Origin: Escherichia coli
Lineage (GTDB): Bacteria > Pseudomonadota > Gammaproteobacteria > Enterobacterales > Enterobacteriaceae
Direction: 5' to 3' (one strand)
NCBI RefSeq assembly: GCF_001677475.2
Contig: NZ_CP015229.1
Length of the DNA: 64,000 nt
Below are positions 51,001 through 57,000 of the stretch, piece by piece. A program made the position numbers. The stretch's first letter is position 1, and each line of letters starts with the position of its first letter.

Positions 51001-54000
51001 CGAACTGTCAGGAAAAGAGAGAAACCAGCTCATCGATTTTATCGATAAACGGGAAAGCATCATTGTATTTAAGGTCAGAAAAGAAGGTTCTGGTAACGGA
51101 GTAACCTTTTTCCGCCACAAAAAATATGGATATCCCAAACGGGAAGGAAACGTCACAATCATTAAGGACCTTCAATCAAAATTATGTACCAAATGCGGGC
51201 AGACAAAATCAGTCAATGATTTTTATTCAGATGCCAGCAAGCGTGACGGGAGAGCCATTTATTGCAAGAAGTGCGAATCTGCAATGAAACGCTCACGCAG
51301 AGAATGCAACAAATTAATTCTGCAACAACAGGAACCTGAAATGAATAACCTCAAAGCAGTATCACCTTCACCAGAAACACTCAGAAAACAGGCTGAAGAA
51401 TTGCTGAAAGCCGCCGAAATTGCGGAGAAAAAACGCCAGGAAGATGATGTATTCAACAAAAAACTTGCGCCCTTAAAACTTGAAATTCTTCAGGCCGCCG
51501 GAAAAATGCAGCTTAAACTGGACGAATTCATCGACTGTATGGATGAAATGAATAAAGCAGTTCAGAAGCTTAAAGAGCTGACCGCCTGATATTAATAAAT
51601 TGCAACTACCGGAGTTAACTATGAACGAAACAGAACTGAAGCACATTATCGCCCTGCTTCTGGAAGATGCCAGACAGGTTTATCGACTTAGCCCAAACTC
51701 CGCAACGCAGGAACGCATCCGGATGGCAGAAAAAGCGCTGAAACAGGAGAGTGAAAATAACATATCCGAAGTTAGCGCGAATGGTGAAAATGAAGCAATA
51801 GAAATAAACAGCAATATCAGCGACGGCGTAATAGCTTCATCCCACAAGACAATTCTCATGGGCGCACGACTTCTGGAGGTGATTACGAGTGAGCTTGAAA
51901 AGAACGGCATCAAGCCCACCCCTTGTTATTTAGAGTGTGTGTTAAATGTTATTGCTTACTCGATGTTCCGTCGGTGACAGATGAAAGTTTTCGATCAAGG
52001 AATGTTTCAAGTGCATCGTAAATAATGGAAATCGCCCCAGACGCCTGAGTAACACCCCCGCAGCAACATCCATGTATCAATATCCTCTTTGGCGGACATC
52101 GGTTTGCCGATTACTGATGTCCGCCCTTTTTTAAAGTGAATTTTATGATGCGGTGAATGCGGCTATGCGCACGCGGAACAGTTAAACCGACAGGATGTCA
52201 CGGAAAATCATCATCCCCTGCTCCGGCGTTAATTGTTAACTGGTTAACGTCACCTGGAGGCACCAGGCACCGCATCAACAAAGTTCATTTGTGAAAATGG
52301 AGATAATTATGATTGCTCATCACTTCGGAACTGATGAAATACCACGTCAGTGCGTGACACCTGGCGATTATGTTCTTCATGAAGGCCGCACATATATCGC
52401 TTCAGCAAACAATATTGAAAAGAGAAAGCTCTATATTCGTAGCCTGACTACAAAAACATGCATTACCAACTGCATGATTAAAGTATTCATCGGGCGCGAT
52501 GGCTTACCCGTAAAAGCAGAGTCGTTGTGACGAGCAATTAAAATACACCTTCCATATCTGTAACAGACAAGCCGAAATAAAAACCGCATTAATTATCAAT
52601 CACGGAAAAATCAAAATGAAAGAACTTGCGCAAAATGAAATATTTTCCGAAACCAGTCCTGATGCAATAAATGAACTCAAAGAAATTGCAGAACGCATCA
52701 GTAAAATATGCAAAGAATACCAAATCGACTTTGTATTTTCTTTTTCAGTACTTACAGAGGTTGGAAATAACGAATATAAGGACAGTCGTTTTGTTTTATG
52801 TGGGTTAAATGGCAAAACACCAAGCCCATATATTCATGCTGCACGTGAAGTCGTCAGAAGCAACATTGGAGCACAACAAATCCATACACTGGCGCAGGCT
52901 CTTGAGTTTGCAAGAGAAAATTCTGAGTGCGACTGCCCTGAATGCCAGCACGAAAAGGAAAAAACAACTCACAAAACAGCAAACCAGGCAACCTTCCACT
53001 GAAATAAAAATCCGGCAGCGCAGGCTACCGGATTTCTCCCTGCGTCACCGTATTCGGAGAAATCAGACAAAGGGCCGCTAATTCTAATCCAGCCAGAGGT
53101 TTAAATACAATGAGCGCTGATAAACAGACTTTTGCACTACACTGCGAAGCAAAAAACGATAAAGTCAGAAAACGCCTTAGCATCAAAGGCGGTTTTTTCT
53201 GGACCGAGGCCAGAAAACTTTCTGTCGCAGTTTCCCGCTGCATTGCAGCCATGGACGATGCAGGCTACGACGAGGATGATTTCAAAAAACCCGTTCGCGT
53301 AAATTTCCCCGTCGTGAATGACCTTCCACCGGAAGGCGTGTTTGATACTGAATTCTGCAACCGCTATGAAAAAGGCGGTAACGATGGCATCACCATGATG
53401 GCTATCCCCTTCGATGACAACATCAACGGTGAAGATGCTACAACTGCTGGCGATGACAACGATAACCTGGACGGAACTATTCCGGATGATGTGGAGAAAA
53501 GCGAATCCCCGGACAGCGACGATGACTGTTCTGAGTGTGAAATTCCCGTCGCCACTCTGAGCCTTACTCATCGCTTCCTTCACCTCTTCTTCTTCAGCAA
53601 GGATGAAGATGGAAAATACCGGCATCACGCCACACCAGAACAACGTAATCAGGTGATTCGTCTGGAGATGGACACAGAAGACAGTTACCTTCAGAGCCTG
53701 CTTACTGCTGTGCGTTCACATCCAGAACTGGATAAGCTGACGAATTATCATCTGGGAAGACTGGCACAATCCGTTGGAAAGGCATTCTCTCACTCAACAA
53801 CCCGTCATATCAGCCCGGCCGAATTCGACAAGTTCATCTCCACCTGGATGAAAACAGACTATGTGGATCAGGGATTGCTGGCAAAAGAATGGCAGAAAGG
53901 AAATTGTGTTACAGGCATCACCCGTACGCCTTCCGGTGCTAACGCTGGCGGCGGAAATCTTACCGATCGTGGCGAAGGCTTTACCCACAATCAGGCATCA

Positions 54001-57000
54001 CTGGCGCGAGACATTGCCACTGGCGTTCTGGCCCGTTCAATGGATGTGGATATTTATAACCTGCACCCTGCACATGCAAAACGCGTTGAAGAAATCGTTG
54101 CAGAGAATAAACCGCCCTTTTCTGTTTTCCGTGACAAATTCATCGCCATGCCCGGTGGGCTGGATTATTCCCGCGCCATTGTGGTGGCTTCCGTGAAAGA
54201 AGCACCAATCGGCATTGAGGCTATCCCGGCGCGCGTGACTGAATATCTCAACAAAGTGTTGACCGAAACCGATCACGCTAACCCGGATCCGGAAATCGTA
54301 GAAATTGCCTGCGGTCGCTCATCAGCCCCGATGCCGCAGCGCGGAACAGCAGAAGAGATACATGACGATGAAGAAAAGCAGCAAACATCGGACGCAATGT
54401 CTAATGAACAGGCAGCGCCTGAATCAGTGGAAGAAATTCCAGTTAAACATAATGCGGACACGCAATCACTGGAAAATGTCTCATCTGTAGAAACGAAATA
54501 CCAGGAACTGAGAGCAGAACTCCATGAAGCCAGGAAAAACATTTCGCCCAAAAATCCTGTCGATGCAGACAAATTGCTGGCTGCCTCTCGTGGGGAGTTC
54601 GTTGAAGGTATCAGCGACCCAACCGACCCGAAGTGGGTGAAGGGGATCCAGACTCGCGACACTGAGGACCAGAATCAATCCAAAGTGGAACAAAATGAGC
54701 CAGAAGCAGAACAAAACAGCCCGGATACGCAACAAAACGGACCGGAAGAGCAACAGCCAGGGCCAGTAATGCAACAGGAAGTGGAAAAGGTTTGCACCGC
54801 ATGCGGTCAGAACGGTGGCGGGCATTGCCCTGACTGTGGTCCAGTAATGGGAGATGAAACTTACGCTGAAACTTTTGGAGAAAATGACACCGCTGCTGGA
54901 GATGACCAGGCACAAATGAAGAATGAATACATTCAGAAAAATGCTGTTGATACAACTCAGGAACACGATTCGGTTGTTCACATCGATCCAGATAGTGATG
55001 CTTCTGACAATAATGATGATTCAGAGCAAGCAGATTTCGACTGGAAAAGGCAACTCGTGCTTGCAGCCGTCTATGGTTTGTGCGCAAACCCTGCATGCGT
55101 CGCAACAGCGCCAGCAATCCCTGATATCGCAATCATGATTGCCAACAGGCTTGAAAATTTTGGAGGTGATAAATCATGAATGCCTGGCTTATCCCCGATC
55201 GCATTGAAGAGCAGTCATGGGCACGACACTACCGGCAAATTGCCCGTGAGGAAAACGAGACTGAACTGGCGGACGACCTGGAAAAAGGTCTGCCCCAGCA
55301 CCTGTTTGAATCGCTGTGCATCGATAATCTGCAACGTCATGGAGCCAGCAAAAAAGCCATTGCCCGTGCATTTGATGACGATGTCGATTTTCAGGAACGC
55401 ATGGCAGAACACATCCGGTACATGGTTGAAACCATTGCCCGCCACCAGATTTATATTGATTCAGAGGTATAAACCAGATGAGTACAGCTCTCGCAACGCT
55501 GGCAGGGAAGCTGGCTGAACGTGTCGGCATGGATTCTGTCGACCCACAGGAACTGATCACCACTCTTCGCCAGACTGCATTTAAAGGTGATGCCAGCGAT
55601 GCGCAGTTCATCGCATTGCTGATCGTTGCCAACCAGTACGGCCTTAATCCATGGACGAAAGAAATTTACGCCTTCCCTGATAAGCAGAACGGCATCGTTC
55701 CGGTGGTGGGCGTTGATGGCTGGTCCCGCATTATCAACGAAAACCAGCAGTTTGATGGCATGGACTTTGAGCAGGACGATGAATCCTGTACATGTCGGAT
55801 TTACCGCAAAGACCGTAATCATCCGATCTGTGTTACCGAATGGATGGATGAATGCCGCCGCGCACCATTCAAAACCCGCGAAGGCAGAGAAATCACGGGG
55901 CCCTGGCAGTCGCATCCCAAACGGATGTTACGGCATAAAGCCATGATTCAGTGTGCCCGTCTGGCCTTCGGATTTGCTGGTATCTATGACAAGGATGAAG
56001 CCGAACGCATTGTCGAAAATACCGCATATACTACAGAACGTCAGCCGGAACGCGACATCACCCCGGTTAACGAAGAGACCATGTCGGAAATTAACGCCCT
56101 TCTTACTTCCATGGAAAAAACGTGGGATGACGACCTCTTGCCGCTCTGTTCCCAGATATTTCGCCGCTACATTCGAGCGTCGTCAGAACTGTCCCAGGCC
56201 GAAGCAGAGAAGGTTCTTGGATTCCTGAAACAGAAAGCCACGGAGCAGAAGGTGGCAGCATGACACCAGAAATTATCCTACAACGTACCGGGATCGACGT
56301 GAGAGGTGTCGAGCAGGGAGATTATGCATGGCAAAAATTACGGCTCGGGGTCATCACAGCTTCAGAAGTTCACAACGTGATAGCCAAACCCCGCTCCGGA
56401 AAGAAATGGCCTGACATGAAAATGTCCTACTTCCACACCCTGCTGGCTGAGGTCTGCACGGGTGTGGTCCCGGAAGTTAACGCCAAAGCCCTGGCATGGG
56501 GAAAACAGTACGAGAACGACGCCAGAGCCCTGTTTGAGTTTACTTCCGGCGTGAATGTTACTGAATCCCCGATCATCTATCGCGACGAAAGTATGCGTAC
56601 CGCCTGCTCTCCGGATGGATTATGCAGTGACGGCAACGGCCTTGAGCTGAAATGTCCGTTTACCTCCCGGGATTTCATGAAATTCCGGCTCGGTGGTTTC
56701 GAGGCCATAAAATCAGCTTACATGGCCCAGGTGCAATTCAGCATGTGGGTGACTCGAAAAGATGCCTGGTACTTCGCCAACTATGACCCGCGCATGAAGC
56801 GTGAAGGCCTGCATTATGTCGTGGTCGAGCGGGATGAAAAATACATGGCTGGTTTTGACGAGATGGTGCCGGAGTTCATCGAAAAAATGGACGAAGCACT
56901 GGCTGAAATTAGTTTTGTATTTGGGGAGCAATGGCGATAGCCGTAGCAACGAGGTGCAAATGATATGACAGTTAAGGAATGCTACCGGTGTTCGTCCTGA

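Follow-up and report, generated by a model that had tools for sequence, protein, structure and literature searches.

RecE of the Rac prophage of Escherichia coli (b1350) ends in a PD-(D/E)XK nuclease domain (residues ~588-866) and is partnered by the annealase RecT. Reviews from 2023 still describe what the N-terminal region (here RecE-N) does as unknown or unclear, and linear-linear recombination is strongly promoted by full-length RecE but not by the nuclease domain alone (PMC11611040, PMC11610958). A second type of protein, RecE-N::DEDD (PF06630 + PF16473), is annotated as an 'exonuclease' in O157-type and other enterobacterial prophages, carries a Rv2179c-like 3'-5' exonuclease domain, and usually has no adjacent annealase or gam. 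Additionally, a 2025 paper in Genome Res (PMC12315714) names nuclease-less 'RecE-2' proteins of lambdoid phages in a passing mention and without analysis, so the existence of nuclease-less RecE proteins is already on record. In this work we describe a gene encoding a 689-amino acid (aa) protein of this kind, RecE-N::tail, located in a 64,000-nucleotide (nt) stretch of DNA from E. coli (assembly GCF_001677475.2, contig NZ_CP015229.1) that is referred to in full as the window. The protein belongs to the RecE N-terminal family, is non-catalytic and under selection, has a modular C-terminus, and occupies a fixed position in the recombination module of the prophage.

The 689-aa protein aligned with K-12 Rac RecE in a BLASTP comparison (residues 51-591 with RecE 43-546, 55% identity, E 2e-178), and near-identical blocks with more than 90% identity were found at residues 261-410 and 461-517. 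The two proteins share the order of segments up to RecE residue 587 (alpha/beta domain, helical domain, conserved motif, and zinc ribbon) and the position of the gene in the pL operon downstream of kil. They differ in what follows, as the RecE nuclease and its RecT partner are replaced by a 46-aa hairpin and then by lambda-type gam, bet, and exo; no recT lies next to the 689-aa gene. The NCBIfam equivalog model for exodeoxyribonuclease VIII (NF007259) was matched only over positions 1-593 of 877 with 739 bits, which is below the curated cut-off of 1269 bits for a full-length RecE enzyme. The sole Pfam match was PF06630 (Exonuc_VIII, E 3e-12), which places the protein in the RecE N-terminal family, besides a weak match to DZR at the zinc ribbon. 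No Pfam match to the PD-(D/E)XK nuclease domain (PF12684/DUF3799) was found in the protein, a search of the PDB sequences returned nothing, including no 3H4R-type chain, and the AlphaFold2 (AF2) model, built on an alignment of 42 sequences with 26-92% identity, contained no nuclease fold and just disorder and helices past residue 404. The cluster phrog_607 ('exonuclease VII') covers residues 1-687 (E 3e-256), and phrog_26058, a profile of 633 positions, has the tail motif at its end; neither cluster comes with information on function, and for the 689-aa protein the 'exonuclease' label of phrog_607 is not valid. The annotation of the protein as an exonuclease is wrong because it has no nuclease domain, and the labels 'RecE family exodeoxyribonuclease' and 'exodeoxyribonuclease VIII' in RefSeq, GenBank, and phage records are misnomers.

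A previous reading of this DNA, made from the sequence alone, had described the open reading frame (ORF) upstream of gam as a relative of the RecE N-terminal region, a region without an assigned function, that has no nuclease domain and is followed by lambda-like gam, bet, and exo instead of recT. Each of these statements agrees with the results above, with the identities to the lambda proteins listed in Table 1, and with the 2023 reviews. The 'short Cys-containing tail' of the sequence-only reading holds for residues 644-689, which are new and contain a cysteine pair in GLCANPAC, but not for the distinct CxxC-x7-CxxC motif at residues 562-576, which is shared with RecE (RecE 514-533). Likewise, the gene is adjacent to the Red module and translationally coupled to it through an ATGA overlap with gam, whereas the 'fusion' to this module does not exist at the level of the protein. 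The idea of a nuclease-less RecE relative was sound, yet it was not new. The description of 'RecE-2' is the same as that of the 689-aa protein, which is related to RecE, is encoded in a lambdoid early-left operon, and has no nuclease fold, and this family may be among the proteins so named. The text of the article does not mention the tail module, the selection pattern, or the fixed swap boundary for 'RecE-2', and no description of the tail module, a swap boundary with three ends, the selection pattern, or an occurrence free of recombinases was found in the literature searched.

RecE-N is a portable module to which three alternative C-terminal modules are joined at one fixed boundary in enterobacterial prophages. 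The break point is always located just past the zinc ribbon and the motif VMGDxTYxETF, after ~590 residues. One end is the RecE PD-(D/E)XK nuclease followed by recT (Rac, Gifsy-2, mEp237, and a Klebsiella phage; loci L002 and L007-L009), another is the Rv2179c-like DEDD 3'-5' exonuclease (L003), where an annealase is usually not nearby, and the third is the 46-aa hairpin tail. RecE-N::DEDD has 59% identity to the 689-aa protein over residues 1-605 and breaks at the same boundary. Among the 120 best relatives of P0130, a distant member of the family, 96 have the DEDD domain and two have the PD-(D/E)XK domain. The exchange can be followed in a Rac-like prophage of E. coli RSHH22, which encodes a 672-aa protein that has 80% identity to Rac RecE up to residue 587 ('DCSDETGE') and continues with the tail; its gene is followed by gam-bet-exo-ralR. 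This switch point lies at about the start of the nuclease-only truncation 'E588' of the recombineering literature. In 5426 complete E. coli genomes, DNA of the DEDD module was found in 4066, DNA of the Rac nuclease in 1736, and DNA of the tail in 105 (~2%, including O104:H4 strains), where the DEDD number counts module DNA and fusion to RecE-N is not proven in every case. DEDD module DNA is therefore far more common than Rac recE in these genomes. In three E. coli prophages (L003, L004, and L010) the interval from dicB/DUF1482 to xis-int contains RecE-N::DEDD as its sole gene of the recombination type and lacks an annealase and gam.

The segments of the 689-aa protein are listed in Table 1. 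The all-helical core contains most of the residues that are invariant across the family, which were read from the columns of 42 diverse sequences. These include D253, W261, G281, D286, R287, D312, and R355, and H293, E260, and H389 are nearly invariant. The core also contains the motif LTETDH. No match to the helical core was found among solved structures. In the AF2 model a long helix is predicted at residues 455-476, and the conserved motif that extends to residue 517 is mostly unfolded and is likely a candidate binding motif. Disorder is predicted from past residue 517 across the zinc ribbon and the second acidic linker. The four cysteines of the zinc ribbon are invariant in alignment A1, and the alignments with RecE and the DEDD proteins stop at this segment. 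The tail is predicted to form two helices at residues 644-659 and 661-682 with values of the predicted local distance difference test (pLDDT) of 51-64. It contains AA..GLCANPA at residues 652-662, the motif by which we define the tail subfamily, and ends in NFGGDKS.

The nuclease-less form is kept by purifying selection and is a real gene and not debris. Copies with 96% identity are found in the Shigella phages 75/02 Stx and POCJ13, and copies with 88-90% identity in phiSTEC1589-Stx1c and PhiR5_2, the record of which names K-12 MG1655 as the host. More than 100 clusters at the 90% identity level in a large protein collection contain proteins of ~680-700 aa that are 77-97% identical and have PF06630 alone. 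The ratio of nonsynonymous to synonymous divergence (dN/dS) was determined by the pairwise Nei-Gojobori method between the window copy and three copies that are ~10% diverged. It was 0.13-0.17 in the helical core (residues 146-410), 0.05-0.07 in the tail at a synonymous divergence (dS) of 0.40, and 0.66-1.1 in the acidic linkers at residues 411-460 and 593-643. For the conserved motif (residues 461-517) it was ~0.09, with a range of 0.06-0.14, where synonymous divergence is substantial; the pair of the window and L016 gave 0.66 at a dS of just 0.04. The reading frame is intact in copies with a dS of up to 0.4-0.6 per segment, and a few genomic copies of the tail are frameshifted. This pattern suggests folded or binding segments that are joined by freely evolving spacers. 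At the loci examined, the RecE-N genes are always found in the recombination-module slot between kil and xis-int.

The hairpin is almost confined to RecE-N proteins. A profile of the tail compared with 1.84 billion representative proteins matched 11 clusters, most of which are RecE-N proteins or fragments. One of the others is a protein of 2130 aa that the profile matches weakly, in repeated partial stretches. The profile found no relative in Pfam or among the PDB sequences, and three tail sequences searched against PHROGs matched only the RecE-family clusters phrog_607 and phrog_26058, apart from one match at E 0.11. The proteins that carry the tail include a 683-aa E. coli-type variant, a 491-aa protein from Buttiauxella, and proteins of 692-736 aa from Cedecea that were reached via the Buttiauxella protein. 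The proteins from the latter two genera have an overall identity of 28-30% to the 689-aa query, and the AA..GLCANPA core is invariant from Escherichia to both of them. A second type of tail is ~10 residues longer and ends in DDEH(I/M)PDF or DDEYMPNF (L018 1906-3438, L025 1643-3661, and P0121-P0125). We take these ends to resemble the tip of E. coli SSB, an acidic C-terminal sequence (...DDDIPF) that binds the C-terminal domain of Red-beta and by which many repair proteins are recruited. The window copy has no such tip.

Tail genes are followed by gam-bet-exo in the window and at L001, L015-L017, L020, and L025, and by gam and an AAA_24/Sak4-like protein, with no nuclease, at L018, L019, and L023. 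Where gam is present beside a tail gene, the two overlap by ATGA or by 23 nt and the ribosome-binding site of gam lies inside the tail codons. In Cedecea the tail gene is followed by DUF1187-xis-int only, and in Buttiauxella by a gene for a 121-aa protein and then DUF1187-xis-int; no gam, annealase, or nuclease is near in either case. Because tail genes occur without Exo, Bet, and Gam, proteins of the 689-aa type are independent of them, and the presence of RecE-N::tail in these prophages without a nuclease nearby indicates that it acts without a nuclease of its own. The 121-aa protein of Buttiauxella sp. B2 (L011/L012 7473-7838; phrog_24072, with a precomputed match to the Pfam family Rrf2) occupies the place of gam, and its gene overlaps the stop codon of RecE-N::tail by ATGA, which is the same coupling as that of gam in the window. 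This protein could substitute for Gam in function, or it could be a partner of the tail.

Several roles of the tail were considered. It is not left over from the nuclease domain's first helices, as hhalign gave a probability of 0.2% against the RecE nuclease domain. A membrane anchor was rejected as well, since homologues carry K, D, and E inside the segment, even though the hydrophobicity of the window copy is borderline (hand calculation). The proposal of a 'split RecE', in which the tail would serve lambda Exo, Bet, or Gam as a docking peptide, is weakened by the presence of the tail in Cedecea and Buttiauxella without these genes, and further by its occurrence with Gam and a Sak4-like protein but no nuclease. 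Both predicted tail helices are almost wholly hydrophobic and, in a two-helix unit, may therefore be buried against another copy or a partner.

The 689-aa gene belongs to a lambdoid prophage and lies in its early-left operon. The gene order is a cI-like repressor (49433-50203), a pL-like promoter (50381-50409), an N-like ORF, two small genes, kil, the gene for a 128-aa protein, the 689-aa ORF, gam, bet, exo, small ORFs, int (57501-58664), and a dmsB/ynfG-like host gene. In lambda kil directly abuts gam and there is no counterpart of the 689-aa gene in between. The DNA of the operon is a mosaic. In blastn comparisons, positions 52114-52533 and 53866-54875 are Rac-like and positions 55197-56938 are lambda-like, and the DNA of the last linker and the tail matches neither. 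The lambda homology begins inside gam, so the 689-aa protein is not a homologue of a Red component. The stop codon of its gene overlaps the gam start (ATGA) and the ribosome-binding site of gam lies within the last tail codons. The features of the locus are collected in Table 1.

Table 1. Coordinates in the window of the 689-aa gene, the segments of its product, and the neighboring features.
Feature	Coordinates	Strand	Remarks
kil (FtsZ inhibitor)	52291..52530	+	83% DNA identity to Rac kilR region
128-aa gene, phrog_2016	52616..53002	+	Also upstream neighbor of RecE-N::tail genes elsewhere (L018, L020)
Stable RNA hairpin AAAUCCGG...CCGGAUUU in the 107-nt gap between the phrog_2016 and 689-aa genes	53008..53035	+	-23.2 kcal/mol, z -3.2; no T-run behind
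RecE-N::tail gene, 689 aa, nuclease-less RecE relative	53110..55179	+	Single ORF, ATG start; RecE homology; isoelectric point (pI) 4.6; whole-gene dN/dS 0.23-0.28
N-terminal alpha/beta domain, aa 1-100	53110..53409	+	pLDDT 75-92; first 50 residues basic, pI 9.5
Acidic disordered linker, aa 101-145	53410..53544	+	pLDDT ~30; 18 D/E, 1 K/R
All-helical core domain, aa 146-403	53545..54318	+	pLDDT 71-93; dN/dS 0.13-0.17; most family-wide invariant residues
Acidic disordered linker, aa 404-454	54319..54471	+	pLDDT ~30; dN/dS 0.8-1.1 for 411-460, almost neutral
Long helix and strongly conserved motif, aa 455-517	54472..54660	+	pLDDT 47-64; motif near-identical in Rac RecE and DEDD fusions
Zinc ribbon (C562, C565, C573, C576) then VMGDxTYxETF, aa 559-592	54784..54885	+	Last segment common to RecE and DEDD fusions
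Variable acidic linker, aa 593-643	54886..55038	+	dN/dS 0.66-0.70; no DNA similarity to Rac or lambda (blastn)
Conserved C-terminal helical hairpin (tail), aa 644-689	55039..55179	+	dN/dS 0.05-0.07 at dS 0.40; family-wide motif
gam, 98 aa, equivalent to short lambda GamS form	55176..55472	+	phrog_259; 83% identity to lambda Gam residues 41-138
bet	55478..56263	+	TIGR01913; 94% identity to lambda Bet
exo	56260..56940	+	phrog_149; 95% identity to lambda Exo

The phrog_2016 proteins are 107-128 aa long (window, L018 1541-1864, and L020 4637-4960), and the window copy, which ends in CDCPECQHEKE, has no similarity to RacC, the occupant of this position in Rac. The RNA hairpin that follows its gene could be a pause site or terminator that is suppressed by N, or a processing site. 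Another protein of the pL operon (50873-51589, 238 aa, phrog_2539) is rich in Cys in its central segment, for which there are weak matches to families of Lar-like restriction alleviation and of endonuclease VII/HNH zinc fingers. The prophage is closely related to the Stx1 phages 75/02 and POCJ13. At the usual position of stx, downstream of three tRNAs (36518-36764; a nanS-like ORF lies at 33323-35371), it has an ORF for a 143-aa TerB/TciA-like protein (35914-36345), as in phage JLK-2012 (tciA/tciB), and the region 35757-36345 leaves no room for stxAB; the prophage appears to be a stx-negative relative. Rfam matches above the gathering score were found on the minus strand at 42028-43141 and 35475-35687 for C4 antisense RNA, isrK, sRNA-Xcc1, and STnc100.

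The reading that we favor, to which we assign a probability of roughly 0.4, is that RecE-N serves as an adaptor or scaffold and delivers its cargo to DNA ends, to intermediates of recombination, or to a partner, and that the hairpin has its part in self-association or docking. The prophage early-left recombination module would express the non-catalytic RecE-N::tail protein, and RecE-N would direct the attached module either to a partner protein or to a substrate, which would be a DNA end or a substrate of recombination. The hairpin would replace the self-association or docking that is otherwise given by oligomeric nuclease domains; the RecE nuclease is a tetramer and Rv2179c is a dimer. RecE-N::tail would not be a nuclease itself but would work in trans, in this prophage probably together with Gam, Bet, and Exo. 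A role at DNA ends or in recombination is also what the fusion of the rest of the family to exonucleases and the constant recombination-module slot point to, and a scaffold fits the boost of linear-linear recombination by full-length RecE (PMC11611040, PMC11610958).

Several points weigh against the scaffold. Fold searches of RecE-N returned no annotated relative, and the idea is drawn from the domain neighbors and from a single phenotype of full-length RecE. That the tail associates with itself is purely inferred, at a pLDDT of 51-64, and an AF2 prediction of a tail-(GGGGS)5-Gam fusion from a paired alignment of six sequences gave a mean pLDDT of 41 and left Gam itself unfolded. The solo occurrence in Cedecea means that a phage recombinase is not needed. 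Additionally, many of the invariant or nearly invariant residues are polar (D253, D286, R287, D312, and R355; H293, E260, and H389), a pattern that could equally be expected of an enzyme or of a site for a specific ligand. It is conceivable, if rather doubtful, that RecE-N is such an undescribed enzyme or ligand-binding domain, in which the helical core acts on DNA ends or nucleotides and the nucleases and the tail are accessory. The conserved polar residues, which lie in the helical domain together with a Gly-rich loop and LTETDH, and the low dN/dS of this domain (0.09-0.17) agree with this. However, no fold or sequence match to any enzyme was found, and decades of work on RecE have reported no activity for the N-terminal region (reviews PMC11611040, PMC11610958). 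In a broader and likewise unlikely version, RecE-N would be an early protein of the phage that is autonomous. It would be a new enzyme or ligand domain of the all-helical type, or else a hub for the capture of a host factor of DNA repair or immunity, and the effectors at the C-terminus (a 5'-3' nuclease, a 3'-5' nuclease, or a hairpin by which a partner is recruited in trans) would be interchangeable.

The sequence-only reading had suggested that a free-standing, conserved copy in the pL operon has an independent role, possibly in host takeover or anti-defence. Conservation is confirmed by purifying selection, and the recurrence of the form in prophages without a nuclease or annealase speaks for a role in which an attached nuclease is not required. 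We regard it as improbable that this role is the neutralization, apart from recombination, of a host nuclease or immune sensor by an acidic, largely disordered protein. The pI of 4.6 and the long D/E-rich linkers are suggestive, but these linkers evolve almost neutrally, which makes a precise DNA mimic unlikely. The gene is an early gene of the pL operon, translationally coupled to the adjacent anti-RecBCD gene gam, and it persists alone in prophages without recombinases; most of its relatives, however, bear exonuclease domains and do not stand alone, and the rest of the family keeps to the recombination-module slot. The identity of the tail tracks that of Gam across five loci, but this covariation is expected from linkage alone. 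No family of PADLOC-DB was matched at E <= 0.01, there was no other family match and no fold relative, and the takeover proposal is accordingly not supported. In recombineering practice, plasmids with full-length RecE still need lambda Gam, which argues against inhibition of RecBCD by RecE-N. The composition of the ETgA operon is given in PMC5861427. Finally, the ORF could be a scar of an event that swapped Rac-type recET for lambda gam-bet-exo, kept because it is in frame and holds the ribosome-binding site of gam. The mosaic of Rac-like and lambda-like DNA, the Shine-Dalgarno sequence of gam within the last codons, the frameshifted genomic copies, and the rarity of the form would agree with a scar. 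This is very improbable, and the data on selection and distribution already refute it for the most part, as the frame is kept at a dS of 0.4-0.6 with a dN/dS of 0.05-0.17 in the folded parts, the constraint on the tail extends along its whole length beyond the ribosome-binding site, the DNA of the linker and tail comes from neither parent, and the same architecture recurs, with an identity of 28-30%, at the Cedecea and Buttiauxella loci, which lack gam.

The exchange of three alternative ends at one fixed point is an example of domain-level mosaicism in prophage recombination modules. No function has been assigned for decades to residues 1-587 of RecE, yet they make full-length RecE/RecT effective in direct cloning by linear-linear recombination. 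A natural, selected, nuclease-free RecE-N beside lambda Red, present in phages that are in culture, is a handle for testing this region alone. If RecE-N acts as an autonomous protein, the nuclease-free form would be a separation-of-function allele that shows the role of the 587 N-terminal residues of RecE, and it would explain why full-length RecE drives linear-linear recombination.

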